From an uncultured Acidobacteriota bacterium (lineage in GTDB: Bacteria; Acidobacteriota; Vicinamibacteria; Vicinamibacterales; UBA2999): a DNA stretch of 64,000 bases. Of the stretch, positions 2,967 to 60,500 are shown in pieces. The stretch covers positions 10,641 to 74,640 of the forward strand of contig CAWIWS010000006.1 of the NCBI GenBank assembly GCA_963839865.1, read 5' to 3'. The position numbers and the translations under genes are program-made. Under the pieces are notes generated by a model that searched no databases, was not told where the DNA came from, and worked only from the letters and a program-made list of their open reading frames with translations. How positions within the stretch are numbered: the stretch's first letter is position 1; each line of letters opens with the position of its first letter.

Positions 2967-4573
2967 CTACTTGCGCTGGAGGTAGCTCCATGTGGCCGGC
3001 GGCGCCAAGCCCTCGAGCGCGAGGGTCTTCACGACGCCGCTCGCCAGATCGATTGCGCGAATCGCGTGGTTGTTCGTGTCGGCCACGTATAGCGTCGCGC
3101 CTTGCCCTGAGCGAGCGTCCGCGCGAGTCGAAGGGGCCACGGACAACCCACCCGGCTCGAAGAACCGCGCGCCGGCTGCCGGTCCATCGGTGTGTCCCGC
3201 CTGCCCCGTTCCCGCAACCGTCGTCACGGCACCGGTCTTTGGATCGAGCACCTTGATCTTGTGGTTGTAGGTGTCCGCGATGTACACGCGGCCCTCGTGC
3301 ACGGCCACGCCCAGGGGATGCTGCAACCGCGCCTTGTCGCCCTTGGCGTCCACGTCACCAAACTCGAAGAGATCGCCTCCGGCAAGCGTCGTCACCGTGT
3401 TCGTGGGCGGCAGCGCCACCGCGCGGATGATGTTGGCCTCCGCGTCCGCCACGTACAGCGTGTCCCCGTCGATCGCCAGCCCGGACGGCTGCGCGAAGGT
3501 CGCCGTCCTCACGGGCCGTCCTTCCGCGCCTCCTCGCCCGTGCCCGCGTAGGGGTACGCCTGGTCGTGCAGGAGATCGATCACCCACAACTGGTGCGGGC
3601 CGGCCATCGCGATCATCAGGATGCCGCGCTTGAGCGCGAGATCCCACGGGGAGTTGAGGTCCAGCCGCAGCGCGTCGCCGCCGTCGCCGCTCCACCCGCC
3701 CTGCTTGCCGGTGCCCGCCACCGTGTGGACCATCCGCGCCTGGAAATCGACGGCGCGGACCTGGTGGTTCTCGGTGTCGGCGACGTAGAGGGTCTCCTCG
3801 TCAAGCGCAAGGCCCTGCGGCCGGTAGAAGCGCGCCTGCGGGAAGATGGCGTCGTTGTCGCCCTGCAGCCCGGAGCCCACCGTTTCGATCACGCGGCCGT
3901 CGAGCGACGCGACGACGATGCGGTTGTGGTTGGAGTCGGAGATGAAGAGGCGATCGCCCTTTGCGTCGGCGAGGACCTTGCCGGGATACAAGAGCGGCCG
4001 GTCCGGGATGTCTCGCGCGCTCGAGCGTGAGCGGCAGCGGCGCGCGATTGATCGGCTTGCCCTGAGCGGCTCGCCGGCCACCGGAGTCGACGGGCCGTCG
4101 AAGACGCGAATGACGGTGCGGATCGCGTCGATGAACCCGTCGAGGTTGCCCTCGCCCATCGCGGTGCCCACGAGGTTGCCGGCCGGGTCGATGATGACGC
4201 GTGTGGGCCACGCCTGCACGCCGTACGCGCGCCAGATGGCGTGGTTGGCGTCGTTCGCGACGGGATGCTCGATCTCGTAGCGCACGAGGATGCGCCGCAG
4301 GTTCTCCGTGACCTTCTCGTTGGCGAACTTCGGCGAGTGCACGCCGATCACGACGAGCTCGTCGGGGAAGCGCTGCTCGAGCGTCTTCAGGTCCCGCAGG
4401 ATGTGCATGCAGTTGACGCATCCGTAGGTCCAGAAGTCGAGGATCACCACCTTGCCGCGCAGCTGCGCCATGGTGATGGGCGCGGACACGTTCAACCAGT
4501 CGACCGCTCCCGCGAGTTCCGGTGCGGCAATCGGGCCCTGGGCCTCAGGCGCGTGTTCTTCTCCGTCTGCCAT
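2967..4573 (-). CDS. Thioredoxin-like + NHL repeat protein (NHLRC2-like; frameshifted)
   Basis: LDFWTYGCVNC, IGVHSPKF, AWPT; repeated LYVADT/SNHxIR NHL blades. Confidence 0.9.
3101..3135. repeat. REP-like element copy inside the NHL gene
   Basis: cttgccctgagcgagcgtccgcgcgagtcgaaggg; encodes PSTRADARSGQG. Confidence 0.75.
4056..4094. repeat. REP-like element copy in the Trx-NHL linker
   Basis: cttgccctgagcggctcgccggccaccggagtcgacggg. Confidence 0.7.
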
Positions 4574-4576
4574 TCG

Positions 4577-6060
4577 TCAGCGCCCTGCGGCGCGCGTGGC
4601 CGCGCGCAGCCAGTCCGCGCGCGCCACGGTGTCTTCGCGGTCGAGCCACGTGTCCACCGGCCACGGGAGGCGCCACGTCCAGTTGATGTCGTCCACGACG
4701 GCCGGCGTGTTGATGCGGTCGGTCCAGCCGAACACGTCCTGCACCAGCATCAGCGAGAGCGCGGACCCGGCGGAGAGCAGCGACAGCAGCACGGCCTCGC
4801 GCCCGGCCTCGGTCTTCCCGTCCTCGGTGGCGGCCAGCGGCGCGATGTCGTGCGAACCGGTGGTCGCCACGGACAGCTCGGGGAATTCGCGCGGGTCGAT
4901 CGGCGCTGCGCCGGGCCGGTCCCAGTGCTTCTCCCAGCGGAGGACCTTGAGGCCGGGGAGCGAGAGGCGCATCATCGATTCGCGGACGAAGGGCGGGATC
5001 ACGCCCAGGTCCTCGGCGATGACCTCGGACGCGGGCTTCCCTCCTCGCCACAGGATCTCGACGAGCGTCTCGCCGAGCGCGATCTGCGCTTCCTCCTCGG
5101 CCGGCGAGAAGAACGCCGGCGTCGCCGGGTCGATGGGGCGGATGTAGGTCCGGTAGAGGCCCACCAGGTGATCGATGCGGAAGCCGTCGTAAAGCGCCGC
5201 GTAGCGGCGGGCGCGCGAGCGCATCCACGCGAACCGTTCTCGGACATGGCCTCCCATCGCCATGGCGGCAGGCCCCAGTCCTGGCCCGTCTCGCTGAAGG
5301 CGTCGGGCGGCACGCCGATGGTGGCGTCGAAACGGAACTCGCCCTGCCGTGTCCAGACGTCCGGGCTGTCGGCCGAGATCATGAACGGCAGGTCGCCGAA
5401 GATACGCGTGGGCCACGCGAGCCGTTTGGCCTCGCTCCACTGCTCGCACGCAATCCACTGCAGATAGCGCCGGTAGCTGATCTCGCCGTGGAGCGCCCGG
5501 CGCGCCTGGTCCACCGCTTCGGCCTCCGCGCGCGAGAGCGGGTCCGGCCAATCCTGCCACCGGTGCTCCTCGTGCAGGGCGTGCAGCGAGCGGAAGAGCG
5601 CGTAGTCGTCGAGCCACCAGCGCTCGCGCGCGCAGAACTGGTCGAAGCGCGCCGCCCGCGGCGTGCCGCGCGCGACCTCGAGGCGCAGGAAGCGAATCCC
5701 ACGACCGGCGGAGCCACCGCTCCTTCATCTGCCGCACGCCGACGTAGCGAATCCGCTCCGACTGCCGCAGCGCGGCCAGTTCCGACTTGTCCGCGAGGTC
5801 GAAGGCCAGCTCCCCGCCGATGGCGGTGAAGTCCGGGACGTCGGCCATCGAGATGTAGATCGGATCGAGCGCCATCGCCGTCATCGCCGAATACGGCGAC
5901 GTTCCATCGGCGGCATCTCGTTGATCGGCAGGATCTGCAGCACGCGCTGCCCCGCCTCCGCCGCCCATCGCGAGAACGGCGCGAGGTCACGAAACTCCCC
6001 GATGCCCCAGCCCTGGGAGGACACGAGCGAGAAGAGCGGGACGATGAGGCCGCTTTGCAC
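4577..6060 (-). CDS. malQ: 4-alpha-glucanotransferase (GH77; frameshifted)
   Basis: SGLIVPLFSL..WGIGEF, LQILPIN, SPYS, FGDLPF, GVPPDAFSETGQDWGLP, RIDHLVG, IAEDLG, INTP..NWTWR. Confidence 0.9.
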
Positions 6061-7229
6061 TAGCGCTTCTTTCCTGCCGCGCGGGCTGAGGACGCGCGAC
6101 ACGCCGGCTTCGAACGCGGCCGGCTCGAGGAGGAGGCTCACCACGACGTGGGCGCCGCTCGTGAAGTCGAAGAAATATCCCGGGTGCACGAGCACATCGT
6201 CCTGCTCGAGGAGGTCGAGGGCGAGCGCCTCTTCGGTGCCCACGGCCGGCACCTGCAGCACGGCGGACCAGCCGCCTTCCACGGGGAGCACCGTCACCTC
6301 GGGGAACGCCGCCGCGGCCCGCGCAGCCGCGCGAGGTTGCGCCGTGACGCGCGCGAATCTGCCGCCGGATCGCGGCGCCGCGCTCGAGAAACGCCGGGGC
6401 GGCCACCTGCGCCGGCGTGGACGCCGACAGGTAGGTGTCGGCGACGATCTCGTAGCCGGCCAGCGCGTGATCGATCGCGCGCTGCGGTCCGCCGAAGCCG
6501 ATCCATCCGAGCTTGACCTGCGGCAGGCCGGCGGATTTCGACAGGCCGCCGAGCGCGAAGGTCAGGACCTCGTTCTGTGACAGCACGCAGGCGGCGTGCG
6601 GCGCGGGGTCGAGCGGGTAGTCGGCGAACACCTCGTCGCCGATCATCGCCCACTGCTGCTCGGCGCAGATCGCGGCGACGGCCGCGAGGTCGTCGCGGTG
6701 AAGGAACGATCCCGTGGGGTTGTTCGGCGACACGATCATAGCGCGCGCACCCCGGGCACGGCGCGCGCCGCACCGAATCGAGGTCGATGCGCCAGGCGCC
6801 GTGGTATTCGAGGTCGTACGGCACGGCGGTGATCGACTCGAGGCGCGTGAGGTGTTCGAAGAGCGGATAGCTCGGCCGCGGCACGAGGACGCTCTCGCCC
6901 GCGTCGCAGAGGAGCTTGAAGAGCAGCGCGTAGGCCTCGCTGGTGCTGGCCGTGACGGCCACGCGGTCCGCGGAAAGGACGATCCCGCGCCGGCGGAAGT
7001 CCGAGGCCACGGCCGCGCGCGCGGACCACAGGCCCAGCGGGAGCGGGTTGTACTCGAGGCCGGCCGGGTCCGCCAGCGGCGCGAGCAGGTCGACCGGGTA
7101 TACGAGGCCCACGCGGGTCGGATTCGACTCGGTCAGATCGATCACCGGGACGTTGCGCCGGCGCTTGCCGTCGATCGCGCGCGACAGCGCGTTGGGCTCG
7201 AGGCTCGGCGGAAGCCGCGACGAGATCAT
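6060..7229 (-). CDS. PLP-dependent aminotransferase class I/II (frameshifted)
   Basis: DLTESNPT, TASTSEAY, PSYPLF, SPNNPTG, DEVF, GLSKSAGLPQVKLGW, HPGYFF. Confidence 0.88.
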
Positions 7230-7235
7230 GTCATC

Positions 7236-9296: not shown

Positions 9297-9326
9297 CGTT
9301 TTCTGGGGTTTCGGGGCCTGACCCCG

Positions 9327-14137: not shown

Positions 14138-14138
14138 T

Positions 14139-17826: not shown

Positions 17827-20600
17827 TCAGGCGTTGCGCGGCGCTTGCCCCAGGGCTGAGCAGGTTGGCCATCAGGCGGAATGCACCATCCGTGCCGGCC
17901 GGCAGCTGCCGCCACAGGCCGAGGCCCACGTACAACCAGCGGCCCTGGCCCACCTTGGCCTCGACCAGCGCGCCGAGCTTGGCGCCCTTGTTGTACGGGA
18001 ACGGCTCGGTGAATTCGACCAGGTCCTGGTACTGCGGGTCGCGGCCCGCCGTGTCGAAGAAGTAGAGGCCGCGTTCCTGCACCCAGCCCGTCCAGTCGGC
18101 GCGCGCCGATGGCGTTGGGCGCGTTGAACACCGGATGCTGCGGCGCGAGCAGCTTGAGCTCCGCGTTCTCGTCGGTCACGCGCTCGCGGCCCACCTTGCC
18201 GGGATACGGGCCGTACTGCGCGTCGTTGAACTCGAACTTGTTGTACTGGACGATCACCGTGCCGCCGGCCTTCGCGTAGTCGAGCAGCCGCTGGTTGTAG
18301 GCGCGCAGGTCGCTGCGCCGCTCGTAGGCGCGCACGCCGGTCATGATCACGTCGTACTTGCGACAGGTCGCCCCACGCCAGGTCGTCGGCGCCGATGAAC
18401 GACAGCTTCACGCCGAGCTGCTCGAGCGCGGCGGGCACCTCGTCGCCCACGCCCATCACGTAGCCCACCGAGAGGTTCGGCTTCACCGCCACGTCGAGCG
18501 CCTTCACGGTGATCTCGCGGCGCCACGCAGCACGTGGCGGCGCGTCGTGTGCGGGTACTCCACGAGCTGGTAGCCCATGCGGTACGTCGCGCGTGCCCTC
18601 GGACGCCGACGAGCTCGCGCCACCGCCTTCACGGTGAACTGGTTGCCGCCGGGCTTCATCGCGGCCTGCGCGAGCACGGGCGGCGGCGGCGGCGTCAGCG
18701 CGAACCGCACGGTCATCGCCTCGTCTTCGCGCGAGAACGCGACGGCCTGCGTCGCCGGCGTCGCCCGCCATCCCTGCGGCACCTCCAGCGCGACCTCCGC
18801 CTTCGCGGCGCCCTTGGCGTGGTTGACCACGGTGACGCGCACGTCCTTCGCCGTGCCACGCGCGTTCGTGCCGGCGTCGGCGCGCGTCGGCACGATCAAC
18901 GTCTCCGGGCGTCGCCGTCACGGCAAACGCGGGCACGACGTGGATTTCGGCGCGCTTCTCGCCGCTGAACAGGTTGCCTTCCGACCGCGCCTGCACGGGG
19001 ATCGTCATCGGGAACTCGACGCCGCCGATGACGAGCGTGAAGGTGGCGGTGTACGGCGTGGGCCGGAACGGCAGGCCGAACGGCACGTCGGGATCGAGGA
19101 TGAACCGCGCCGCGTCCTTGGCGTACTTGAAGTGCGCGGCGGTGAGCCGCGCGTCGGCGGGAATCGTGCCGCCGGTGGCCGACGGCGTCCGCGAAGCCGT
19201 TCAGCGCGCGCGCCTTCACCACGACCGGCACCGTGCCGCGAATCGCCGCGAGCATCTGCACCTTGCACCGGCTGGCCCGCCACGACGAGGCCGTCGTCCG
19301 CCACCGCGTCGAGCTTGACGTCGGCCGCCACGGCGAGCGCCTGGGTGAACTGCGCTTCCTTCTGCTTCGAGCCGGAAGTCGATCTCGTAGCGCGCGCTGT
19401 CGTCGATCGGCATGCTGCGCCAGGTTCACGCGAAGCGTGCGGAGGGCGGTGAGGCCCAGCGCAAGGGGCGGCACGGTCGCGGCGGTGCCGTGCGCCGCCA
19501 GTTCCGCGCGCGCCTTCGCGACGCTCCCGGTGATCGCGGTCAGCGCGGACGTGAGGCCGGCCGGCGGGTTGGCGCCCGCGAACTTCGCCAGGCCCGCGAG
19601 CGTCGTGTCGACGCCGTCGAACGGCTCCTTCTCCGCGCGGTCCACGCCGTCGGGCAGCACGGTGTCGCGCAGCCGATACGCGCGCGACGCTGCCCACGCC
19701 GCCGGCTTCGCCGTCGGAGAGCGGCAGCAACTGCGACATGCCCTGGCACTTGTGATGCTGCGCGCCTCGGCCGAGATCTCGTTGCAGGTGCGGCCGAGCA
19801 CCGCGTCGTAGTAGGCGCCGCCCTCGAACATGAGCGGGGTCTTGGCGCCGTCACCCGGCAGTTGCGCCACGCGTGGCGCGCGCCCAGCTTGCCCTGAGCC
19901 TGCCGAAGGGGACCCACCGGGCCCGCCACGGCCGCCCGGGCCCGGCCCGAAGCCCGGCCGTGTAGTAGTACTTCTTCGGCTGCCACGGGCGCAGGCCTTC
20001 CTCGATCTGCTCGGGGAACTGGTTCGGGTCCGCCGCCGCCCGGAACGCCTCGAGCGTGAGGCGCGCCGAGGTCTGGTGGTGCTGGCCGCCGCCCTCGCCG
20101 TCGAAGATCGAAGCCGACGATCACGTCGGGGCGGATCGTGCGAATCATGCGCACGAAGTCGCCCGAGAATCTCCTGGTGGCCCCACTTCTCCAGCGTCTC
20201 TTCGACGCTGAACGAGTAGCCGAAGTCCACCGCGCGCGTGAAGTACTGCTCGGCGCCGTCGAAGCGGTGCGCGGCCAGCAGCTCCTCGGTGCGCAGCACC
20301 GCGAGCGACTCGAACAGCTCGGGGCCAATCTCGTTCTGCCCGCCCTCCCCGCGCGTCGCCGTCACGAGCGTCGTGCGAAACCCCTTCCCGTGCGAGTAGT
20401 ACGCGAGCATCGCGTTGTTCTCGTCGTCGGGATGCGCCGTGGTCATCATCAGGGTGCCCACGGTGTCGAGCTTGCGGAGCGCGAGCTCGAGCGCCGGCTC
20501 GCCGCGCATCGCGGCGATGGGCTGCAGCTGATACTGGGCGGAGGGGACGGTCGCGGCGAGCGCCGCAAAGAGGATGACGAGGAAGGGCGGTGCGGCGCAT
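17827..20600 (-). CDS. Secreted PIG-L/LmbE family deacetylase with NEW3-like and C-terminal GATase-like domains (frameshifted)
   Basis: [32 protein letters not shown]; [25 protein letters not shown]. Confidence 0.85.
19888..19910. repeat. Minimal REP-like element inside the PIG-L gene
   Basis: cttgccctgagcctgccgaaggg; encodes PSAGSGQA in a Gly-rich loop. Confidence 0.65.
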
Positions 20601-20612
20601 TGGGATCGACTC

Positions 20613-20711
20613 CGGGAGTCGGGAGTCGGGAGTCGGGAGTCAGAAAAACGAGAAGTCGGGAGCCGGAAGTCGGATGTCCTTCGACTCCCGACTCCCGACT
20701 CCCGACTCCCG
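20613..20711. repeat. Inverted pair of GGGAGTC heptamer arrays
   Basis: (gggagtc)4 ... (gactccc)4 hairpin. Confidence 0.9.
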
Positions 20712-20722
20712 TCACGATCTGG

Positions 20723-23644
20723 TTAGAAGCGCACCCGGAACCCGAGCTGGAACTTCCGCTGCTCGTAGCCCGAGGGGTTGGTGAACTGGTACGGGTCGCT
20801 CGGAATCGGGTTCACCGGGTTGCCGGCGGTGTCCACCGGCGTGGAGGTCGTGATGCCCGCCATCTGCTCGGTGTTGAACACGTTCTTCAGCTCCGCGATG
20901 ATCTCGCCGCGCACGTTGCCGCGCACCGGGATCCAGCGCGTGTAGCGCATGTCCACGTTCTTGCGGGTCGGCAGGTAGAGCGAGTTGCGCGCGACGCCCA
21001 GCGGGCGGTCGCTCAGCACGCCGTCGCCGTTCAGGTCGCGGTTGGCCGGGATGTTGATGGGCAGGCCGCTGTTGAACTGCAGCAGCAGGCCGATCTCGTT
21101 GCCGTTCAGCAGGCCGTGCACGAAGGCGTTCGACGAGCTGTTCTTCGACGAGTAGACGATGTTGCCCGTGAAGTTGTGGCGCATGTCGAGCGGGTTCGGG
21201 CCGCGGTCGCGATCCAGGTTGCTCGGGTCCGACCGGCCGGATTCGGCCTGCACCGTGAGCTGCGTGAGCAGCGGCGTGTTGTCCAGGCCCTTGCCGAGCG
21301 AGTACTGCACGTTGAACGTCACGCCCTGGGAGAAGCGCTTGTTGGCCTGCACCGTCATGCGACTTGAAGGTCGAGTCGCCGATCGACTGCACTTCGTTGA
21401 TGTGGTTGAACCGCGGATCCACGCGGGTCGCCGCGCTCACCGCCGTGCTGTAGATCGGCCGGCCGTCGGCGAGCGTGCCGATCGGGTTGATCAGGTTGAC
21501 GTCGGTCACCACGGGCAGCTGCGAGCCCTTGGCGTACATCACGTTGACCGACGCCGTGAAGTCGGTGGCGATCGAGCGCTCGACCTGCGCGTTCACCTGC
21601 CAGGTGTGCGCCACCTGGAAGTCGGAGTCGACCGCCCACGGCGACTGCTGGCTGAGCGTGCCCGTGCCCGCGGCGGCCGGGAACGCCGGCGCGCCCGCCG
21701 AGGTCGGGTTGAAGGTGTAGGACGGGCGCCTTCGGCGATCCGCGAAATCTGCAGCGCCTGCTCGTAGCCGCCGAGGATCGCCTGGTCGTACATGATGCCC
21801 GTGCTGGCGCGGAACACCGTCTTGCTGTCCACCGACCAGGCCATGCCCGACGCGGGGCCCGAAGTTGTTGCGGTCGATGTTGAAGCTCTGCGTCTGCGTG
21901 AGCGGCGCGTTGGAGAGGCCCGCCGGGTAGTTGTAGAGGTCGTAGCGCACGCCGTAGAGCAGCTTCACGCGCGGCGCAATCTGCCAGTCGTCCTGGATGA
22001 ACGTGCTGAAGATGTTCGTCGACATGTTGAAGTCCAGGTCGCCCTGGAGCTGCGTCATCGTTCGAGTAGGCGAACGGGTTGAGGCCCGCCTTCGCGTCGA
22101 GATACGCGGCCGTCGTCGGGAACGTGTAGATCCACTGCGGCGCGGCCGACGCGCTGGTCGTAGACGTGCTGGAAGTCGAAGCCGACCTTGTAGCTGTGGT
22201 TGCCGCGGATGTAGGTGAAGTTGTCGATCACCTGCGTCATGTTCTGCTGGAAGTCGAAGCCCGCGTTGCCCTGGCCGGTGGCCGACACCGGGCCGCCGAA
22301 GCCGGCGACGCCGGAGATGAGGATCGCGGGGCCCGTGCCCGAGTCGCTGTTGGCCACCGAGCTCTGGTGACGATGCGCGTACTGCACGCGGAGCTCGTTG
22401 AGCTTGTTGGCGCTGAACGTCGTCACGAGCTGGCCGGCGATCGAGTCCATCGCGTCGAGGAAGTCCGTGGCGCGCTCGAGGGTGTTGATGCCGCCGCCGC
22501 TGTTGTAGGGCGCGTCGTTGTGGAACTGCACCCAGCGGACCGTGGCGCGGTTGGAGCTGTTCACCTGGTAGTCGCCCTTGGCGATCAGGAACTTCGCCGT
22601 CTGCACGTTCGGCGCGGCGGCCGGCTGCGGCTTGAGGCCGAGAATGCGCCACCGTCGCCGGCGGGCACCGTGATGAGCGAGTTGGACGACAGGTCGCGGC
22701 GCGGTCTGTTCCCAGCCGGTGTAGAAGAACAGCTTGTTCTTGAGGATGGGCCCGCCGATGTTCGCCGTGCCGGTGTCCACCTTGGTCTCGGGCTTGGTCG
22801 CGTTGGCCGGAACGTCGGGGCAGTTCGCGGCGACAACGCCGGAGCAGCCGAAGAAGAAGGGGAAGGCGCTGAACTCGCGGCGGCGGAACAGGTAGCTGCC
22901 CTGGCCCTCGGAAGGCGTTGCTGCCCGACGGCGTCACGGCGTTGAACACCATGCCCATCGTCTGGCCGAACTCGGGCGCGAAGCCCGTGGTGACGACCTT
23001 CACTTCCTGGATCATCACTTCAGACATCGGCAGGAGGCGCAGGCCCGCGCGGTCCTTCTCGGTGTTGGTGTTGCCGTCGATCTGGTAGTTGATGCGCATC
23101 GCCGCGCCGTTGGCCGCCAGGCGGGGCACGCCGAACTCGACGTTCTCGATGCCCGTCACGCCGGGCTGCACGAGCGCGAAGTTGTACGGGTTGCGCGCGA
23201 CGAGCGGCAGCGAGTGCACTTCCTGGTCGCTCATCGTGTGGCCGATGTCGATGCGCGCGGCGTCGAGCAGCGGCGAGTCGGCGGTGACGAGGATCGTCTC
23301 GCTGACGGCGCCCACGCCGAGCACGACGTTGACCGTCGCCGTCGATCCGACCGACAGGCGGATGCCGGTCTGCTGGTAGCCCTTGAAGCCCTGGAGCTCC
23401 GCGGTGACCTTGTAGTTGCCGAGCGGCAGCAGGGGCGCGCGATAGAGGCCCCGCTCGTTGGTGACCACCACGCGCTGGTCGCCGGTGTCGAGGTTGGACG
23501 ACGGTCACGGTGACGCCGGGCAGCAGCGCGCCCTGCTCGTCCTTCACCGTGCCTTCGATCGTGCCGTTGGTGGCCGTCGACTGCGCGGCCGCTGAAGAGA
23601 CGAGAGCCAGACTCAAGTATGAACGCCGTGAGTATGCGGAACAT
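20723..23644 (-). CDS. TonB-dependent receptor (Oar-like, carboxypeptidase regulatory-like N-domain; frameshifted)
   Basis: GTVKDEQGALLPGVTV, LPLVARN, YQIDG, FAPEFG, FIQDDW, GVRYD, NNFGPR; C-terminal QLGFRVRF. Confidence 0.9.
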
Positions 23645-24149: not shown

Positions 24150-25383
24150 CTACAGGTTGCGCGAGAACGAAAAGAACTGATCCGCCTTGTCCGCCTGGCC
24201 CTGGACCGACCGCAGCAGGATCCGGCTCGCCAGGAACGCGCGGGCCGGGTCGTGCAGCGTGCCGAAGGCCAGATGCTGGTGCGGAAAGTTGCGATGCGTG
24301 CCCGCATACAGCACGTCGTCGATGCTGTGCGCGAGCGGCGTGTCCCAGCCAAACGCCGGCGCGGCGCCGGAGATGGCGGGATAGAGCCGCGACAATTCGT
24401 ACATCAGCTGGCCCGTGCGCTGGACCAGCGTGGCCTCGCGCAGCCTGGCGGCCGGGCGGCGCTGGTCCGCGCCGGAGAAAACAGCGCGATGATCCGCCGT
24501 CCACCAGAGCTGGTGCGCCGGCGCGTCGGTGTCGCAGAGGATGTCGGCGCGCTTGCCGAGCTGCGGCGCGCACGGCGGCCGGGAGCGGCTCGGTCATCAC
24601 CGTGTAGCGATCCTCGAAGCGGAAATGCCGGCGGAGCGCCTTGAACAACTCGGTGGGCTCGCCCGTGCACAGCACGGCGGCGCGCGGTGACGATCGTGGA
24701 TCCGTTCTCCAGCGCGATCGTGGCGACCTTGCGATCGAACGTGATGCGCGCCACGCGCGAGCGCTCGAAGAACTTCGCGCGGCGCTTGAGGGCCGCGGCG
24801 GCAAAGCCCAGGGCCAGCCGATACGGATCGACGAAGCCCCAGTCCTTGAGGCGAATGCCCCCCGCCGCGGGCACGGCGACCGAGCGCGTGATCGCGGCGG
24901 GCAGTTGCCACGGCGCATGGAGGCCCGCGTCGTCGCGATCGGCCGCGTCGCGGCGCAGGATCTTGTCCGGCTGGCCCGCGGGGATCACGCGCAGCGCGTC
25001 ACCGATGTGCAGGTCCGCCTTGATGCCGAGCCGCTTGACCGTGGCCGCCAGCTCGCGCGGCGCGCGGCTCGATTCCTCGAAGAGGGCGCGCGCGGACGCG
25101 GCGTCCCGCCCGCGACGTCGAGATCGCGGAACGACTCGCACGCTTCGCTCGAGAAGAAGCCGCTCGCGCGGGCGGTGCCGCCCTGGCCGATGCGATGGGC
25201 CTCGAGCAGGATGACCTTCAGGCCCGCGGCGGCGCAGGCCTGCGCCGTCATGCAGCCGGTCATGCCGCCGCCGATGATGACGAGCGGGGCGGTGATGTGG
25301 CCCTTGAACGCCGGAAACTCCGGTCGCTTCTTCACGGGAACGGCGCCAAGCCATGGCGAGACACCGTAGCGGGTCTGAGGCAC
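24150..25383 (-). CDS. FAD-dependent oxidoreductase (DAO/DadA family; frameshifted)
   Basis: VIIGGGMTG, LLEAHRIGQGGT, DPYRLALG, FFERSRV, YELSRLYP. Confidence 0.85.
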
Positions 25384-25399
25384 GAACTGAATTCTATCC

Positions 25400-25428
25400 G
25401 GGAGTCGGGAGTCGGGAGTCGGGAGTCG
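25400..25428. repeat. GGGAGTC heptamer array
   Basis: (gggagtc)4. Confidence 0.85.
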
Positions 25429-25464
25429 ATTCCAGGTCGCAATATTTCACGAAACTGCACGATT

Positions 25465-26602
25465 TTACGCTTTGACCGTCCGCCGTCTTTCCGCCTCAAG
25501 CAGGCGCTTCTTCCGCTCGATACCCCAGCGATACCCGCCCAGTCCGCCGTCGGTCTGGACGACGCGGTGGCAGGGCACCACGAGGCAGACAGGGTTGGTG
25601 GCACACGCCCGCGCCACCGCCCGCGCCGCCGTCGGCTTGCCGATGGCGCGCGCGACCTCCGCGTAGGCGCGCGTCTCGCCGCAGGGGATCTGCTGAAGGG
25701 CACGCCAGACCTTCCACTGAAAGGCCGTGGCCTGCACGTCGATCGGCAGGGCCACCGACGCGTCCTGTCCGCGCAGGTGCTGGACGATGGCCTTGACCCA
25801 TTCGGGCCTGGGCTTCTCCCTGGCGCGGATGTCGGCGGCGGGATACTCGCGGCGCAGATCGCGTTCGAGCGCCGATTCGTTGTCGCCCAACTTCACCGCG
25901 CACACGCCGTTGGCCGTGGCGGCGATCAGCACGTGACCGAGCGGGCTCGCCACCACGGCGTACCCGATGCGCATGCCGGCGCCGCCGCGCCGGTAGTTCG
26001 ACGGCGACATCCCGCGGCCCGTGGGCGGCGCTTCATACACGCGGCTCGGCGAGCCGTACCCGGCCTCGTAGATCGCGGTCGTGACATCGCGCCCGTCGCG
26101 CAGGCTCGACCGCAACCGCCCGGCGCGGACGGCCGCCTGGTATTCGCGCGGCGACAGGCCGACGATCGCCTTGAAGCGCCGCTGGAGGTGGTGCGGACTC
26201 ATCGACGCCACGCGCGCGAGGTGGCCGAGCGTCACGGCCTCGTCCGCGTGCGTCGCGAGGTACGCGGACGCGCGCGTCACGGCCTCGATGCCGGGTTGCG
26301 ACACGCCAACGGTATCCGGACGGCAGCGCTTGCAGGCACGAAAGCCCGCCTGCCGCGCATCGGACGGCGTGTTGAAGAAGCGCACCCGATCGGCCCGCGG
26401 CCGCCGGCTCGGACAGCTCGGGCGGCAATACACGCCGGTGGAAGTGACCCCGTAGACAAACGTCCCGTCCGCCCGCGCATCGCGCGCGGCGAGAGGCTGC
26501 CAACGGGGATCCAGGCTGGTGGGGCTCCCCCCGCCTTCGCAAGGGCTTGCCCTGAGCGACGCCCTTCCGTTTCGGGGCGGAGTCGAAGGGCCACGAGTTC
26601 AT
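25465..26602 (-). CDS. ada: Bifunctional Ada transcriptional regulator / O6-methylguanine-DNA methyltransferase (frameshift near 5' end)
   Basis: FVYGVTSTGVYCRPSC, FRACKRC, AraC-type HTH (SPHHLQRRFK), TAFQWKVW, VPCHRV. Confidence 0.93.
26546..26590. repeat. REP-like element in the ada 5' region
   Basis: cttgccctgagcgacgcccttccgtttcggggcggagtcgaaggg; encodes PFDSAPKRKGVAQGK. Confidence 0.75.
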
Positions 26603-26672
26603 GCTGCATCATGCGGCTAAATTAGGCCAGCCCGCCCCAGGGACGCGATCCGGGGATTGCGGTCAGAGTGAA

Positions 26673-26778
26673 GCTTGTCACGGCTTACGGCTTACGGCTT
26701 GCGGGCGCTTGTCACGGCTTGCGGCTTACGGGCGCTTGTCACGGCTTACGGCTTACGGTTCCCGACTCCCGACTCCCG
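26673..26778. repeat. GGCTTAC heptamer array with ~27-nt higher-order unit, followed by GACTCCC units
   Basis: gcttgtcacggcttacggcttac-like x3, then cccgactcccgactcccg. Confidence 0.85.
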
Positions 26779-26796
26779 AGAAGTATCATCCCGTCA

Positions 26797-35419: not shown

Positions 35420-36731
35420 GTGAAATCTGCGTTTAATCTGCGGCCCTCTGTGGCCGTCATTGGCGGCGGGGCGGCGGGGCTGGTGGCCGCGATATTCGCC
35501 GCGTCGTCCGGGGGCGACGTTCTCCTCCTGGAGCGCACCCCAGACGGCGGCCGCAAGATTCTCATCAGCGGCGGCGGGCGCTGCAACATCCTGCCGTCCG
35601 CGCTCGCGCCCGAGCGCTTCGTCACCGACTCGCCAGCCCACCTGCTGCGCGGCATGCTGCGCGCCTGGCCGCTCCATGAACAACGCGCGTTCTTCGAAGA
35701 CGAAGTGGGCATCCCGCTCGCGCTGGAAGAGGAGTCGGGCAAGTTGTTTCCGCAGTCGAACAAGGCCCGCGACGTGCGCGATGGCCTGCTCGCGCTGGCG
35801 CGCGCGCGCGGCGTTCGCCTGCAATTCGACACCAGCGTCACCGCCCTCGAATCGATCGGAAGATGGCTGGACGATCGGCACCACCCGCGGCCCCGTCCAG
35901 GCCTCGCGCGTGATACTCGCCACGGGTGGCCTCTCGGTGCCGGCGACGGGCAGCGACGGCACCGGCCTGCACGTCGCGGCCGCGCTCGGTCATCGCATGG
36001 TGCCCACCTACCCGGCGCTGACGCCCTTGCTCGGCGGATCGGATCCGGCGCACGAACACGCGTTCCTCGCGGGTGTGTCGCTCACCGTCCGCCTGCGCGC
36101 GAAGGTCGGCGCCAAGGTCACTGAGACCACGGGCGGCTTCCTCTTCACGCACCGCGGCTACAGCGGCCCAGCGGTGCTCGACATCTCGCACGTCGTCACG
36201 CGTCCCGTTCCCGACTCCCGGTTCTCGACTCCCGACTCCCGGCCTGCCCTGAGCGGAGTCGAAGGGCTCCCGACTCCCGTCGTGATCCGAGCCCAGTGGT
36301 CCCCGCTCGACGCCGCCGCCTGGTCGCGCGCGTTCGAGGCGCCGGCGGCATCGGTGGCCACCATCCTCGCGCGCCATCTGCCCGCGCGCCTCGCCGAGCA
36401 CCTGATGGGCGAGGCCGGCGTGCCGCTCGACCGGCGCACGAGCGATCTGCGCCGCACCGAGCGGCTGGCGCTCGTCGATCGCCTCACCGCGTACGTCCTG
36501 CCCTGGACCGGCGATGAAGGCTACAAGAAGGCCGAAGTCACGGGCGGCGGCGTGGCGCTGGACGAGGTCGATCCACGGACGCTCGAGAGCCGCCGGTGCG
36601 CGGGGCTCTTCCTCTGCGGCGAGCTGCTCGACGCCTTCGGCCCCATCGGCGGTCACAACTTCGCGTGGGCCTGGGCCACCGGCCGGGCCGCGGGCCTCGG
36701 CGCTATAATGAACGTTCCTCCCGGGAGATGA
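35420..36731 (+). CDS. HI0933/BaiN family FAD-binding flavoprotein (frameshifted)
   Basis: VIGGGAAGL, GRKILISGGGRCN, GKLFP, LATGG, FLFTHRGYSGP, AEVTGGGV, GELLD..GPIGGHN. Confidence 0.92.
36203..36279. repeat. Composite GACTCCC array + REP-like element in frame inside the flavoprotein gene
   Basis: cccgttcccgactcccggttctcgactcccgactcccgg-cctgccctgagcggagtcgaaggg-ctcccgactcccg; encodes PVPDSRFSTPDSRPALSGVEGLPTP. Confidence 0.85.
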
Positions 36732-53186: not shown

Positions 53187-53191
53187 CTCGG

Positions 53192-53259
53192 GGCCTGGGT
53201 CCTGGGTCGTAAGCCGTAAGCCGTAAGCCGTGACAAGCGTCCGTAAGCCCCTAAGCCCT
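53192..53259. repeat. GTAAGCC heptamer array
   Basis: gtaagccgtaagccgtaagccgtgacaagcgtccgtaagcccctaagccc. Confidence 0.85.
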
Positions 53260-53278
53260 GAAGTATCATTTAGAGGCA

Positions 53279-55112: not shown

Positions 55113-55137
55113 GGATAACTGTTATCCTGAGCCGGAC

Positions 55138-56397
55138 ATGGCTCGCCGATCCCGACGGCTGGTTCTCCTCTTCGTGGGCCTGCTCATCACGGCGGGCCTT
55201 GGGTATCGCGCCCAGCAGGACGAGCGGGCGCTTTCCGCGCTCCGTGCGCACGCGGTCGCCGAGGATCGCGCGGCCGACGCCGGCCTCCTCGCCATCGGTG
55301 ATCTCCGCTCGGCCCTGTATGCCTACGTGTCCGCCGGCCAGGAGATCGGCCCCTGGGCGCAGCGGGCCTCCGCCGGCGTCGACGCCCTTCGCGAACACCT
55401 CCTCGCCCTCGATGCCGCCGTCGCCCGTTCGGGCAGTTCGATGGCCGACGCGCTCGACGGCCTCGACCAGTTCGAGGCGGCCGAGAAGCGCGCGCGCAAC
55501 TACGCCGACGTGCGGCCAGTCGCTGCTCGCCGGTGATGTCATCTTCACCGAAGCGCGGGACCTGCTCGACGGCCTCGGCAAGCAGGTGACGACCACGCGC
55601 GACGCGCTGCGCCGCGACGCCACCGCCCGCGAGGACGGCCTGGTGCTGGAACAACGCGCCCTCGCCGCCGGCGCCCTCGGCCTATGGATCGTGATCGCCC
55701 TCCTGCTCGTCCCGACCCCGAAGACGCAGGCGCAGGCACAGACGCTGGCGAATACAGAAGAACAAATAACAAATAACGAAGGCGCGACCAGCCTGAACCT
55801 GTCGTTCGATCGCCTGGACTCGCCCGCCTCCGCAGCACCCTTGGCACCCGTAAGCACCAGCACCCCACCTTTGGCACCCCTGGCACCCTTGGCACCCTTG
55901 GCACCTCGGTTCCTCGCTCGTCCTCCGCCGCCGAAATCTGCAGCGACCTGTCCGCCCTGTCGGATGTCGGCGCGCTGACCGGCGCCCTCGCGCGCGCCGC
56001 CGATGTCCTCGGCGCCTCGGGCGTCATCGTGTGGGTGGCGTCCAACGACGGCAACCAGCTCGCCCCGGTAGCCTCGCACGGCTTCGACCCGCGCATCCTC
56101 GCGCGCATCGGGACCATCCCCCGCGACAGTTCCAACCTCACGGCGGCGGCCTTCCGCGAAGCGTCCGCGCGCGTCACCGCCGCGTCGGGCGCGCTGCCCG
56201 CGGCCGTGGCCGTGGCCCTCTGCGGACCGTCGGGTCCGGTCGGCGTGTTGTCGGCGGAACTGCGCCAGGGCGCGGCGGCCGACGATGCGTGCGTCGCGTT
56301 CGCGACGATCTTCGCCGCGCAACTGGCCACCCTCGCCCTGCCCGTGCCGGCGGCGGCCGGCGCCGATTCATCCTGGCCCCAGCAGGCGCAAGCCTGA
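55138..56397 (+). CDS. Membrane protein with periplasmic helical domain and C-terminal GAF-like domain (frameshifted)
   Basis: Two TM segments flanking a helical region; ASGVIVW..AVALCGPSGPVGVLSAE..FAAQLA. Confidence 0.6.
55834..55906. repeat. 9-nt GCACCCTTG tandem array within CDS
   Basis: Encodes APLAP..LAPLAPLAPLAP. Confidence 0.75.
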
Positions 56398-56428
56398 TCG
56401 CGGGCCCCGTGCTCGACGGGGATCTCAG

Positions 56429-56806
56429 ATGAGCCTGTCCGTTGTTCTCGCGGAAGACGATCCAGACATCCAGCTCGTGGCGCGTCTCGCCCTCAAGCGC
56501 GTCGGCTTCATCGTGCGCGTGGTCGGCAACGGCGTGGAGGCCCTGGCCGCCATCCGCGAGCAGCCGCCCGACGTCGTCCTGCTGGACTGGATGATGCCGG
56601 AACTCGACGGCCCGGAAACGTGCCGCCAGATCAAGTCGGACCCGGCCATCGCCGGGATTCCCGTGATCTTCCTCACCGCCAAGTCGCAGGAAGCCGAGAT
56701 CCAGCGGGGCCTCGCCCTCGGCGCCGCCGGATACGTCACCAAGCCCTTCGACGCCCTCGCGCTCGGGCAGCAGGTGAAGGACATCATCCTCGCCGCCAAG
56801 CCGTGA
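56429..56806 (+). CDS. Single-domain response regulator
   Basis: LAEDD, LLDWMMPELDG, FLTA, YVTKPF. Confidence 0.93.
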   Translation: MSLSVVLAEDDPDIQLVARLALKRVGFIVRVVGNGVEALAAIREQPPDVVLLDWMMPELDGPETCRQIKSDPAIAGIPVIFLTAKSQEAEIQRGLALGAAGYVTKPFDALALGQQVKDIILAAKP

Positions 56807-59511
56807 CGATCCGCAGCCGCGCGTTCGCCGCCTTCGCGTGGCTGGTCCTCGTCTCCGGCGCGATGACGGGCCTCGTCGTTTACTCCTACCGGGAGTCGGA
56901 GCGCCTGCAGGCGCAGCAGCAGCGGCAGAGTGAAGTCCTCCAGTTGCAGGCCACCGCCTGGCGCGCCCTCATGGAGATGAAGGCCGACCAGCGCGAGTTC
57001 CTGCTGACCGGATCGCTGCCCCTGCGCGATCGCCGCGAGCGCGACCGCCGCGTCTACACGTCGTCGATCGCGCAGTTGAGCACGATGGTCGACAACCCCG
57101 GCCAGAGCCGCCGGCTGGCCGCCGTCCGCGACGCGGCCGAGAGCTGGACGAACACGTTCACCGACGGGTTGCGCGCCTCGACCGCCACCATCGCCGAGTC
57201 CGAGATCATCATCCGCGAGAGCGACACGCGCTTCGAGCCCCTCTCGCAGGCCCTGGTGGCCTTCGAGACGCAGGAACGTGAATTGATGCGCGAGGCGGTG
57301 GACCGCGAGAGCAGGCGCCTTGCCACCTTCACCTACATCGTGGGCGGCCTGGCCGGTCTCGGTGTCGTGACGATCCTCGGGTTGCTCGCGGGCACCAAGC
57401 GCATGCTGCTCGATCCGTTGAAGCGCCTCACGCAATCCGCCGACCGGATCGGCCACGGCGATTTCACCGCGGCCCACCAGACACTGCGCCGGGATGAGAT
57501 CGGCGTGCTCTTCAACTCCTTCGCGACCATGGCGCAGGCGGTGCAGAGCCGGGAGAAGGAACTCGCGTCCGCGCTGTCGGAATCGCGGCGCCTCGCCGCC
57601 GCGTCGGCGGAGGCCAGGGCCCTCGTCGAAGCCGCGCACGCCGAGCTGATGGCGACGATCGAGACGGTGCCGGCGGCGCTCTTCCTCTACGAGGCTCCGA
57701 GCGGCCTCGTGCGCATGCGCAACCACGCCGCGGTGGAGATCTTCGGCGTCCCGCCGAACGATCCGGCGCTGCAGTCGCAGTATCTCAGCCGCTTCCGCAT
57801 GGTCAATCGCGACGGCTCGGCCTGTCCGCCCGAAGAGTGGCCCGAGGTGCGCGCGTTGCGCGGCGAGCAGGTGGTGGGGCACGAGCTCGACATCCACCAC
57901 CCGGACGGCCGCGTCTTCTGCGTCATCGCGAGCGCCGCGCCGCTGAAGAACGACCTGGGCCACATCGTGGGCGCCGTCGTCGCGCTGCAGGACATCGCCA
58001 AGCTCCGCGAGGTCGATCGCCTCAAGGACGAATTCGTTTCCACGGTGAGCCACGAGCTGCGCACGCCCCTCACGTCGATTCGCGGATCGGTGCAGCTCGT
58101 GCTCGACGAGCCGGGGTCGGTGCCCGACCCCGAGCACCAGCAGTTGCTGCAGATCGCGCTGAACAATTGCGAGCGGCTCGTGCGCATCATCAACGACATC
58201 CTCGACGTCGCGAAGATCGAGTCGGGCAACGTCACGCTGAACAGGAAGGCCTGCCAGGTCGCCGATCTGGTCCGGACGTCCATCCAGGTGGTGGAAGGCC
58301 CCGCGCGCGGCGCCCAGGTGACGCTCTCCGCCTCGCTGCCCGCGAAGCTGCCGCCCGTCCTGGTGGACTCCGATCGCATCGTGCAGGCGCTCGTCAACCT
58401 CCTGTCGAACGCGGTCAAGTTCGCGCCGCCCAACTCCACGGTGACCGTCGGCGCCACGGTGGACGAGGGCGTCGTGAAGATCACGGTGGCCGACCAGGGT
58501 GACGGGATTGCGCCCGAGAACCTCGCGCGTCTCTTCCGGAAATTTCAGCAGGTGGACGCGTCGTCTTCGCGCCGCAGAGGCGGCACGGGCCTGGGCCTGG
58601 TCATCACGAAGACGCTGGTGGAATTGCACGGCGGCCGTATCTGGGTGAACAGCGAGCCGAAGAAGGGCACGACGTTCACGTTCACGCTGCCAGTGGCGCC
58701 CGCGGAGTCGGCGGTGGCGCTGGCGCCCGTGGCCGCCAACAAGGATGGGTCCGCGCGCCTCGCCGTGCGCCGCGTGCTCGTCGTGGACGACGATGATGAC
58801 TTCCGAGCGGTGATGCGGAAGCAGCTCACGCGCGCGGGCTACGTCGTGCTCGACGCGCGCGACGGCGCCTCCGCCCTGCACGTGGCGCGGACGACCCACC
58901 CCGACGTGATCACGGTGGACCTGATGATGCCCGGCCTCGATGGCTGGTCGTTCATCGAACGCCTGCGCGAAGAGCCGTTGCTGGCGCACATCCCGGTGGT
59001 CGTCGTGTCGGGCGCGCCGGAGGCGGGGGCCGGGCGCCTGCCGTCGGAGATTCCCGTGGTGCCGAAGGGCGAAGGCCAGGATCGCATACTGCGCGAAGTG
59101 GGCCAGGCCCTCGGCAGCCGTCGCGGCGCCACCATCGTCGTCGCGGAAGACGACGATGACCTGAGGGGCGTGCTGGCGGCGTCGCTGGCCCGCGGCGGAC
59201 ACCGCGTGATCCAGGCGCGCGACGGCGGCGAGGCCCTGGCCGCCATCGACCGCCAGCGCGTGGACCTCGTCGTCCTCGATCTCTGGATGCCGAACGTGGA
59301 CGGCTTCGAGGTCCTCGAGCGGATCCGCTCGGCCGGCGACGCCACGATCCCGGTGGTGGTGGTCTCGGGCGGAGATCGGGCGGCGTCGGAGGTGCGCGCG
59401 CTGGGCCTCGGCGCGAATATCTTCCTGACCAAGCCCGTCGACGCCGCGGCGCTCACCGAGGAAGTGACCCGCCTGCTTACGCAGGCCGCCGGATCTACGC
59501 CGGCCGACTGA
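56803..59511 (+). CDS. Hybrid sensor histidine kinase (CHASE3-like, HAMP, PAS, HisKA, HATPase, two REC)
   Basis: DEIGVL, VSHELRTPL, NLLSNAVKF, DQGDGI, GGTGLGL; REC motifs VDLMMP and LDLWMP. Confidence 0.93.
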   Translation: MTIRSRAFAAFAWLVLVSGAMTGLVVYSYRESERLQAQQQRQSEVLQLQATAWRALMEMKADQREFLLTGSLPLRDRRERDRRVYTSSIAQLSTMVDNPGQSRRLAAVRDAAESWTNTFTDGLRASTATIAESEIIIRESDTRFEPLSQALVAFETQERELMREAVDRESRRLATFTYIVGGLAGLGVVTILGLLAGTKRMLLDPLKRLTQSADRIGHGDFTAAHQTLRRDEIGVLFNSFATMAQAVQSREKELASALSESRRLAAASAEARALVEAAHAELMATIETVPAALFLYEAPSGLVRMRNHAAVEIFGVPPNDPALQSQYLSRFRMVNRDGSACPPEEWPEVRALRGEQVVGHELDIHHPDGRVFCVIASAAPLKNDLGHIVGAVVALQDIAKLREVDRLKDEFVSTVSHELRTPLTSIRGSVQLVLDEPGSVPDPEHQQLLQIALNNCERLVRIINDILDVAKIESGNVTLNRKACQVADLVRTSIQVVEGPARGAQVTLSASLPAKLPPVLVDSDRIVQALVNLLSNAVKFAPPNSTVTVGATVDEGVVKITVADQGDGIAPENLARLFRKFQQVDASSSRRRGGTGLGLVITKTLVELHGGRIWVNSEPKKGTTFTFTLPVAPAESAVALAPVAANKDGSARLAVRRVLVVDDDDDFRAVMRKQLTRAGYVVLDARDGASALHVARTTHPDVITVDLMMPGLDGWSFIERLREEPLLAHIPVVVVSGAPEAGAGRLPSEIPVVPKGEGQDRILREVGQALGSRRGATIVVAEDDDDLRGVLAASLARGGHRVIQARDGGEALAAIDRQRVDLVVLDLWMPNVDGFEVLERIRSAGDATIPVVVVSGGDRAASEVRALGLGANIFLTKPVDAAALTEEVTRLLTQAAGSTPAD

Positions 59512-60341
59512 ACGTCGCCGGCGATTCGAGGGTGGCCTTCACGGTTGTCTCCTTCTTGTCGCGCACCAAGCCGAGGGTGACCTCGCCGCCGGCCTTCGAG
59601 AGCTCCCGCACGAGCGCCTCCGAGTCCCGCACGTGCGTGCCGTTGACGGATGTGATCACGTCCCCCGCCTTGAGGCCCGCCTTCTTCGCGGAGGAGTTCT
59701 CGGTGACGCTCGACACCAGCACCCCGCCGTCCTTGGCGCCGAAGTACTCGGCCAGTTGTGGCGAGAGCGACTCGATCGAGACACCAAGGCGGCCGCGCGA
59801 CGGGGCCATGCCCGGCATGTTGAAGTCGCGGAAGCCCTGCATGCCGCGCTCGACTTCGCGGCGAATCTCGTCGCCGTCGATCTCGAAACTTCTCGCGGAC
59901 GCGCGGGCTTCGGGCGTGGCGTCAACCGTTTGCCGCTGACCGTTCCGCAGCACCGCCATCCGGACCTGGCGGCCTTCAGGGGTCTCCTGCACGAGGCGGG
60001 TGAATTGACGGGCGCTGCGGACGCGTTCGCCGTCGGTACTCGACCACGACGTCGCCGGCCTTGAGGCCCGCCTTCTCGGCGGGGCTCGCCGCGGTGACTT
60101 CTTCGATGCGCACCCCGGCCTGGGCGGCGCCCTTGGCGTCCGACGCGGCGAGGTCGGCGACCCTGACCCCCAAATGGAGGCCCCCGCCGAGCATCGTGGC
60201 GAAGCCGCGCCCGTCGGCGACGATCACGTCCCGCCGGGGCGCCTCGGGGCGCCTGGGTTCCTGCGCGCCGATGGACGATACGGCGGCCACGACGGCCACC
60301 GCGAGAACCGCGAAAAACACTGCGAACTTTGCTGGCTTCAT
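59495..60341 (-). CDS. Secreted tandem PDZ domain protein (frameshifted)
   Basis: Signal peptide; HLGVRV..SPAEKAGLKAGDVV; RLGVSI..AKKAGLKAGDVI; no protease domain seen. Confidence 0.82.
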
Positions 60342-60411
60342 AGGAGCGTTCTCCTCCCTTTCACTCCGTCTGACGCCGAGCCCAGGCACCCGGCCGGGCT
60401 GTTCGTCCCAG

Positions 60412-60500
60412 CCCGTAAGCCCGTCCTTCGACTCGGCCCGGTGGGCCTCGCTCAGGACAAGTAAGCCGTAGGCCGTAAGCCGTAAGCCGTGACAAGCCGT
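60412..60500. repeat. REP-like element nested in a GTAAGCC heptamer array
   Basis: cgtaagc-ccgt-ccttcgactcggcccggtgggcctcgctcaggacaag-taagccgtaggccgtaagccgtaagccgtgacaagcc. Confidence 0.85.

Follow-up and report, generated by a model that had tools for sequence, protein, structure and literature searches.

The window considered here, meaning the whole 64,000-nucleotide stretch (C6:10641-74640 of a 5.18-Mb Vicinamibacterales assembly in 30 contigs, rated 64.6% complete), carries six copies of a short DNA repeat with conserved arms and a variable core. A gene for a thioredoxin-NHL repeat protein on the minus strand (2967..4573), split near 3515 by a frameshift in the assembly, hosts copy 1 (3102..3134, plus strand) and copy 2 (4057..4093, plus strand), both of a long form, the latter with one arm mismatch (GTCGACGG). 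Copy 3 (19889..19909, plus strand), of a short form, lies in the N-terminal part of a PIG-L-family, deacetylase-like gene (18896..20509, minus strand), which has several frameshifts in the assembly and whose orthologs are about 920-990 amino acids (aa) long. Long-form copy 4 (26547..26589, plus strand) lies within ada, encoding a methylated-DNA methyltransferase and AraC-type regulator (25465..26612, minus strand), and short-form copy 5 (36244..36265, plus strand) lies within an HI0933-like flavoprotein gene (35420..36731, plus strand) that has one frameshift in the assembly. The original prediction was of a palindrome resembling repetitive extragenic palindromes (REPs) and repeatedly inserted into protein-coding genes. 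It placed six copies in the window, five of them within coding sequences, and both counts are confirmed: its pattern gives exactly six matches, all on the plus strand except that of copy 6 (60425..60460, minus strand, long form), which is also the only intergenic one, in the divergent spacer that separates a PDZ-domain gene (minus strand) from a glutamine-synthetase-like gene (plus strand). That this is a dispersed repeat with in-frame genic insertions is hardly in doubt. The six sequences are probably dispersed copies of a small structured element, the partner repeat of an 87-aa GIY-YIG nuclease that may spread the copies.

Across the 5.18-Mb genome the same pattern has 19 matches. Exact arms (GCCCTGAGC and GTCGAAGGG, 0-60 nucleotides (nt) apart) occur 18 times, against 0, 0 and 0 occurrences in three controls with the arms reversed or swapped, and one mismatch allowed per arm gives 96 matches against 22, 37 and 27. 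Because these arm counts exceed all three controls, the repeat is real. A stricter definition yields 33 copies of the short form, with 1 in the control, and 15 of the long form, with none in the control; these 48 copies constitute the high-confidence genome set and provide the genome-wide count that had been proposed as a check. The motif is present in all 31 sampled genomes of the order, at 1-127 copies against 0-2 for the control. The window holds 5 of the 48 high-confidence copies where plain arithmetic would give about 0.6, a comparison made post hoc. In the genome designated G030 the short form also occurs in tandem arrays with a period of 24 nt, or eight codons per unit (C282:13869-14006, C405:34557-34646 and C305:5430-5519).

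The two arms are complementary only in part. The outer stem is GCCCT/AGGGC, with the variants GCCCC/GGGGC, ACCCT/AGGGT, GTCCT/AGGAC and GGCCT/AGGCC, and the conserved GAGC/GTCGA core can pair only as G.A-type mismatches plus two G-C pairs, tandem G.A pairs being possible. The short form measures about 21-24 nt and has an apex loop of 2-5 nt; the long form reaches about 51 nt and holds a variable inner hairpin, bounded by GA on each side, between the arms. In two related genomes, G003 and G010, the inner stems of the long form are hypervariable yet perfectly paired, and the lengths between arm ends cluster at 33, 39 and 45 nt in our own tally. With the core held fixed, 18 of 806 genome matches have complementary flanks at five of five positions, against 1 of 378 in the control. 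The term palindrome used in the original prediction is generous: only the 4-5 bp outer stem and the variable inner stem can pair, and when the window copies are folded as DNA seven of eight strands fold no better than shuffled sequences (z from +0.13 to +1.59; the eighth, z -0.48). The possibility that the inner stem is copied from flanking DNA was also considered and found no support, the core 7-mer being found in the near flanks of 11 of 26 copies and in the far flanks of 8 of 26.

On comparison with orthologous sequences, the five genic copies are lineage-specific additions, situated in a turn, two linkers, an N-terminal linker and a variable loop. The alignments that had been proposed as a check found the repeat peptides absent from 10 of 11 NHL, 13 of 14 PIG-L, 14 of 14 Ada and 15 of 15 HI0933 orthologs, and at the nucleotide level the added DNA measures 33, 45, 48 and 60-66 nt, in every case a multiple of three as the insertion hypothesis had anticipated. 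Copy 1 represents an addition of 33 nt (about 3103-3135) that is matched by a 33-nt gap in the orthologs L010, L012 and L013 and is read PSTRADARSGQG, between GGLSVA and TLYVADTNNH; the orthologs without it have GDT or GNT there, while the remaining ortholog (L008) carries a short-form copy at the same nucleotide position. In an AlphaFold model of this region, covering 197 aa and built from an alignment of 12 rows, strands E136-142 and E156-161 flank the insert at a point at which only two residues form the turn in other blades; the mean pLDDT is 84.4 overall, 76 in the block of the insert and 97 and 87 in the blocks next to it. The copy 1 insert is thus modelled in the beta-hairpin turn of an NHL blade, in agreement with the earlier suggestion that it interrupts such a blade and, more generally, that the repeat creates extra loops. 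Mobility of the repeat and translation of its peptides remain matters of inference.

Copy 2 lies in the linker between the thioredoxin and NHL parts of the same protein, after ..RVFD, and corresponds to a 48-nt gap in L009, L010 and L012. This site is filled in the window, L011 and L013 (48 nt in the latter two) and empty in eight relatives; in the window the core is 12 nt shorter, with a further 1-nt gap, and after the copy come two indels, -1 and +1, separated by 55 alignment columns. The copies of L011 and L013 differ in their inner stems by two double compensatory changes. Copy 3 stands within 45 nt (about 19878-19922) that are extra relative to the closest relative, L074, and is read SPSAGSGQA in a Gly/Pro-rich linker of the PIG-L-family protein, a linker in which L080, one of the 14 orthologs that span the site, has PSTRADARSGQA. 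Copy 4 falls in the N-terminal linker of Ada between the start MMQHELVA and LDPRW, where orthologs begin MMQHE(L/V)VA.. and the linker to LDPRW is hypervariable. In the corresponding DNA of G003 (L096) a long-form copy is found not inside the 5' end of the gene, as in the window, but in intergenic DNA about 150 nt upstream of the ada start. Copy 5 is part of a composite addition of 60-66 nt (about 36205-36270), with CCCGACTCCCG repeats on either side, and is read PALSGVEG in a variable loop of the flavoprotein.

The reading frames given in the original prediction require partial revision. PALSGVEG at copy 5 is as stated; copies 2 and 4 were probably misread. The two orthologs that carry copy 2 read it as PST..LRA and not as PVDS..AQGKP, and at copy 4 the start MMQHELVA that is shared with orthologous Ada proteins (window 26612) gives LRLRPETEGRRSGQA in place of PFDS..AQGKP, with one more frameshift near a run of six G needed to reach LDPRW.

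Such frameshifts might instead mean that the genic copies mark truly broken genes, in which case no enlarged proteins would exist in the organism. The genes of the window carry many frameshifts, the frame changes within about 60 nt of each of copies 2, 3 and 4, and among the genome copies phase changes across the repeat are commoner (10 of 26 genic copies) than at random positions (198 of 1147) by a rough method based on the phase of GC content at third codon positions (GC3). Yet the frameshifts are scattered over the genes and also lie away from the copies: single-base indels split genes frequently throughout the assembly, the PIG-L gene is broken about four times within 900 nt, and, as a separate observation, a TonB-dependent-receptor-like open reading frame (ORF) at 20712-23471 looks garbled. 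One frameshift is missing from a near-identical metagenome contig (a single contig, depth 2.1), in which an extra base after 3515 restores the thioredoxin-NHL frame. Relatives, moreover, carry copies in intact ORFs: open frames with repeat peptides are seen in thioredoxin-NHL orthologs (533-564 aa) and a PIG-L ortholog (921 aa), and of 29 sites sampled in G003 and G010 eight are inside intact ORFs (419-718 aa), 16 are coding on one flank only, 1 is coding on neither flank and 4 are ambiguous. Decay of the host genes is therefore a very unlikely general explanation, and it is the gap lengths together with the intact ORFs of relatives on which the in-frame claim is based. Because of the many single-base indels, frames in the window itself are not reliable to the base. 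Of the two outcomes named beforehand as contrary to insertion, namely peptides shared by orthologs without nucleotide palindromy and breakage of the frame in polished reads, neither was seen. The aligned metagenome contigs are short (151-260 nt) and of low depth, and none of those listed spans copy 2 or copy 3; other copies of the repeat may be the source of the variants listed at 3117-3121. Five sequencing runs share small fractions (0.05-0.13) of the words of the window and a sixth, from the same study as X1, next to none; among the runs listed for these words none was RNA. In the genome as a whole, the rough GC3-phase method assigns 26 of the 48 copies to coding regions, both flanks being coding on a single strand, and does the same for 1147 of 2000 random positions, so that no exclusion of the repeat from genes is visible. 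The enlarged proteins would presumably be made and work.

Several other repeats accompany the one described here. Copy 6 is flanked by repeats of a second family, GCTTACGGC-type units (read LTAYGLR or AVSRKP), which occupy 60461-60495 at this copy and 26650-26790 upstream of ada; two more long-form copies with the same type of flanks are found at C7:8191-9047. The third family consists of the CCCGACTCCCG units, read TPDSRLPTPDS or GVGSRESG, which often stand on both sides of a short hairpin and form a composite element with it, within genes as well as between them (window 36205-36290, 20449-20715 and 25332-25703; C20:599196, C20:655715 and C28:74167). The loop that holds copy 5 contains VASGFSRT or GLRQGFGGQ in some of the HI0933 orthologs L060-L062, L066 and L067, and the thioredoxin-NHL ortholog L012 has the repeat-derived peptide NVASGFSRTTA. 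These protein loops are hot spots for several unrelated repeat families.

A gene flanked by the motif, encoding either a REP-associated tyrosine transposase (RAYT/TnpA) or a GIY-YIG nuclease, had been proposed as something to look for. The first part of this expectation failed and the second succeeded. A classical REP mobilised by a RAYT, that is, by a Y1 tyrosine transposase of the IS200/IS605 kind, could be imagined given that the genome has four Y1_Tnp matches (PF01797) and that REPs are short imperfect palindromes, some of them inside genes according to the parts of PMC3733652 consulted; but all four Y1 loci lack a copy within 1.5 kb, the copies have no GTAG tag next to them, and the motif accompanies a GIY-YIG gene instead, which makes mobilisation by a RAYT most improbable. 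The genome encodes one small GIY-YIG ORF, of 87 aa, outside the window at C22:270422-270685 (Pfam E 9.4e-20), directly downstream of the transfer-messenger RNA (tmRNA) gene and of three or four repeat copies. Its nearest solved chains are the UPF0213 proteins 1zg2 (E 2.4e-12) and 1ywl (E 1.2e-10), and NCBIfam has no family for it. Within the order, 22 of 31 genomes (including this one) have a GIY-YIG match at E<=0.001, and in 17 of 22 loci at E<=1e-8 a copy in the orientation of the gene lies 16-170 nt upstream. A copy in the opposite orientation often precedes it, abutting the 3' end of the tmRNA gene or of a tRNA-Arg, -Glu or -Leu gene, an RNA gene being present in 12 of 21 loci. A second class of small GIY-YIG proteins in the order has the hairpin nearby at 0 of 7 loci; this family (..RFVYVLKS..YYTGLTSD..HNAGRCPHT..FEKYLKSGSG..) occurs in many relatives (loci L045-L047, L055, L056 and L135-L137).

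The association extends to other phyla. Among the 80 best loci of public genomes, ranked by similarity, 78 have enough upstream DNA; the motif lies within 320 nt upstream of the GIY-YIG gene in 70 of these, and a tRNA or tmRNA gene ends less than 400 nt upstream in 53. The 80 loci come from Vicinamibacterales and other Acidobacteriota, Gemmatimonadaceae (Gemmatimonadota), Nitrospirota, Ignavibacteria, Binatia, Planctomycetota, Verrucomicrobiota, Lentisphaeria, Kiritimatiellia, Methylomirabilis (Methylomirabilota), delta- and betaproteobacteria, Sphingomonas and one actinobacterium. It is highly likely that the repeat is specifically linked to this GIY-YIG gene family. The resulting mini-cassette consists of the tmRNA or tRNA gene, a reverse hairpin abutting its 3' end, a forward copy and the GIY-YIG ORF, as at C22:269820-270685 in the present genome (positions 899-1764 of L001/L027) and at loci L028-L052 and L157-L236. 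Its RNA genes are tmRNA and tRNAs for Leu, Ala, Arg, Glu, Ile, Met, Gln, Asn and Ser, and the presence of different RNA genes in different genomes suggests that the cassette itself moves to tRNA and tmRNA 3' ends.

The cassettes also provide evidence regarding the structure of the hairpin. Of 39 anchor matches, inspection by eye removed 11 that were chance anchors or pieces of longer forms out of register, and 28 cassette hairpins were kept. Paired cells make up 90% of this set, and sliding the partners lowers the figure to 31-44%. Two pairs covary: 6:27, with U:A in 16 hairpins and C:G in 8, and 13:19, with G:C in 23 and A:U in 3. The covariation score of 0.203 (0.131 for shuffles) was reached by 0 of 500 shuffles, and pairing in the hairpin is accordingly supported by compensatory changes. 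The same covariation would suit a motif that works in transcripts as structured RNA, in a regulatory or terminator-like manner, as it cannot distinguish RNA from single-stranded DNA (ssDNA), and many long-form copies lie at gene ends (the 16 of 29 sites with one coding flank only). No Rfam family, however, matches the window at gathering scores, and around the cassette only tmRNA is found at E<=1; copies occur in both orientations relative to genes; and the adjoining gene encodes a DNA nuclease domain. The commonest cassette apex, moreover, is GCGAAGC or GCGNAGC, with C-GNA-G in short forms, and an apex of this kind is typical of very stable mini-hairpins of DNA and not of RNA. An RNA motif thus seems highly improbable. 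The oligonucleotide d(GCGAAGC) is the classic very stable DNA mini-hairpin, reportedly described by Hirao and co-workers in the 1990s; it resembles the cassette apex, but it is a physical-chemistry observation on oligonucleotides and not a genetic element.

The preferred interpretation, that the repeat is the partner of the GIY-YIG nuclease, would involve the following steps. By analogy with the Ssn nucleases and their repeats, the nuclease would recognise the folded hairpin on single-stranded DNA and nick beside it, and repair or strand transfer after nicking would spread copies around the chromosome. Copies would enter genes about as often as other DNA, and selection would keep those that preserve the frame in turns, loops and linkers, so that proteins gain 7-22 residues. 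By that analogy the nuclease would bind and cut this particular hairpin; that it drives the spread of the repeat is conceivable, with confidence falling somewhat short of even.

Several observations weigh against this interpretation. The copies of the window are not stable hairpins by nearest-neighbour energies, and the excess of phase changes across genic copies could mean real frameshifts and not assembly errors. Neither a target-site duplication nor a terminal inverted repeat was seen at four aligned insertion boundaries. The link between protein and hairpin is purely positional. Among 120 other genomes in an even sample of the phylum, 16 encode a homolog at E<=1e-12, and of 15 homologs from outside the order (41-49% identity) 1 has the motif upstream; set beside 70 of 78 in the similarity-ranked set, this indicates a linkage that weakens as the proteins diverge. 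No match to the GIY-YIG class of the cassette was obtained in five genomes with 23-87 copies, among them G010 and G009, which are rated 100% complete, and copy number does not track the gene, since the gene-bearing genomes G020, G023, G028 and G029 carry 1-2 copies. A separate observation is that the same sites are filled in lineages that are not sisters: at the copy 2 site, L014, the sister of L013 (support 99/98), and L015, the sister of L011 (91/89), lack the copy, and as the species that have it do not form a clade, the tree needs three changes.

Alternatively, the hairpins may be recognition sites with a cellular role, such as control of recombination, transformation or replication by the nuclease, a role proposed for NTS in Neisseria, and may not spread by themselves; genic copies would then have arisen by ordinary mutation or gene conversion and been kept for that role. 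The conservation of hairpin sequence and structure across phyla is consistent with such a role, as are the two double compensatory changes between the G010 and G003 copies at one orthologous genic site, which appear as if structure had been kept, and the Ssn paper (PMC11893778), in the portion seen, favours a transformation role in Neisseria. Conversely, presence at identical sites is patchy between close relatives, copies lie in both orientations, several reading frames and unrelated genes, their number ranges widely within one order, and the repeated origin of arms of 9+9 nt by point mutation is implausible. A purely cellular role is accordingly considered unlikely. A broader proposal is that a hitherto undescribed system spanning many phyla exists, in which a cassette of about 0.5 kb settles at tRNA and tmRNA 3' ends and encodes a UPF0213-like single-domain GIY-YIG ssDNA nuclease together with its own d(GCGAAGC)-type hairpin; the nuclease would seed hairpins chromosome-wide, and the system would act as a general generator of new surface loops in the proteins of soil and sediment bacteria. 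This proposal, under which species that are not sisters would have gained copies repeatedly at one and the same codon position or lost them precisely from it, is put forward only tentatively and is doubtful in its full extent.

If the partnership of repeat and nuclease is correct, it would offer a testable partner DNA for many uncharacterised GIY-YIG proteins of 80-100 aa that fall outside the published Ssn motif, and a second natural pair of ssDNA hairpin and nuclease for ssDNA tools. Since lineages that are not sisters share occupied sites, it may be asked whether insertion is targeted or excision precise, which can be tested. Odd recurring peptides such as PST..SGQA, LS.VEG and PFD.AQG in predicted proteins would be explained by a DNA repeat, which is a warning for annotators; PELVEG, LSLSKG and PFDKLRA, found in many hypothetical proteins, presumably correspond to this DNA motif as well.

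Regarding known systems, the literature searched contained no paper with both CCTGAGCGA and GAGTCGAAGG and none linking UPF0213 or YhbQ with GIY-YIG; a search on a cassette of GIY-YIG, tRNA or tmRNA and hairpin found nothing relevant, the Minerva preprint having no GIY-YIG or tmRNA passage. Miniature inverted-repeat transposable elements are characterised by terminal inverted repeats and target-site duplications, features missing from the four boundaries mentioned above. The REP/RAYT and IS200/IS605 systems are similar in that a protein gene lies beside its own hairpin repeats and the substrate is likely single-stranded, but their enzyme has the HUH/Y1 fold, whereas here it is a GIY-YIG protein and no Y1 gene lies near a copy. 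Di Nocera et al. 2013 (PMC3733652, seen in part) describe GTAG- and CGTC-tagged REPs, some of them intragenic, with RPE-4 and RPE-6 among the CGTC types, and in that part link no transposase to the CGTC type. Like the present element, these are short structured repeats, some in genes and often dimers of opposite orientation; the tag, stem, loop and tail differ, as judged from text descriptions and not from consensus sequences. The CGTC type has an unpaired CGTC (or TGTC/CCTC) tag, an 8-9 bp stem starting with A-T, a loop of 4-5 nt and a CCA-like tail, whereas in the window copies GAAGG is preceded by AGTC or GCC, the outer stem consists of 4-5 bp of G+C and a CCA tail is absent; the flanks of the six copies read ..CTTGCCC, ..CCTGCCC or ..CTTGTCC and lack GTAG. 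Nor is the repeat predominantly extragenic, as REPs are, given the 26 of 48 copies with coding DNA on both sides and the 8 of 29 sites in intact ORFs of two relatives.

The closest parallel is with the Ssn nucleases. Chenal et al. 2025 (PMC11893778) showed for the Ssn proteins, which have a single GIY-YIG domain and belong to cd10448, that hairpin repeats (NTS/SRM) are bound and cut by them as ssDNA only, and that 71% of Ssn homolog genes are flanked by SRMs. In both systems a scattered hairpin repeat stands beside the gene of a small single-domain GIY-YIG protein, of 94 aa there and 87 aa here, and the pairing is seen in many phyla; repeat copies adjoin the gene at 17 of 22 and 70 of 78 loci here; their repeat, however, flanks the gene on one or both sides, while here it lies upstream and is preceded by a tRNA or tmRNA gene. 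The SRM pattern HGTCWYN(0-2)YYVSBRHN(0-5)WNVSBRGN(0-2)RNCYNB overlaps 0 of 30 exact copies and is found at 0 of 78 gene loci (-400 to +700). A term search of the supplementary files seen for that paper returned neither arm sequence, and genic in-frame copies are not discussed in the text consulted ('in-frame', 0 matches). The sequences therefore point to a new, variant-type pair of repeat and nuclease outside the published SRM, GTAG and CGTC types, the REP types having been compared by description only.

The Rickettsia palindromic elements (RPEs), which insert in frame into genes for conserved proteins and add peptide segments (PMC3733652, in the part seen), are the nearest parallel for the genic copies, and the likeness to them in the original prediction applies to behaviour and not to structure. 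Here too the repeat adds residues to conserved proteins of relatives whose frames stay open, and the gaps of 33, 45, 48 and 60-66 nt would preserve the frame in the genes of the window. RPE-4 and RPE-6, as described there, are CGTC-tagged with stems of 8-9 bp, whereas the present repeat has no CGTC tag, an outer stem of 4-5 bp and a conserved non-canonical core. The host of RPEs is obligately intracellular; the hosts considered here are free-living soil or sediment bacteria, and the conversion of repeats into protein segments, as in Rickettsia, would thereby be extended to free-living, GC-rich soil bacteria.

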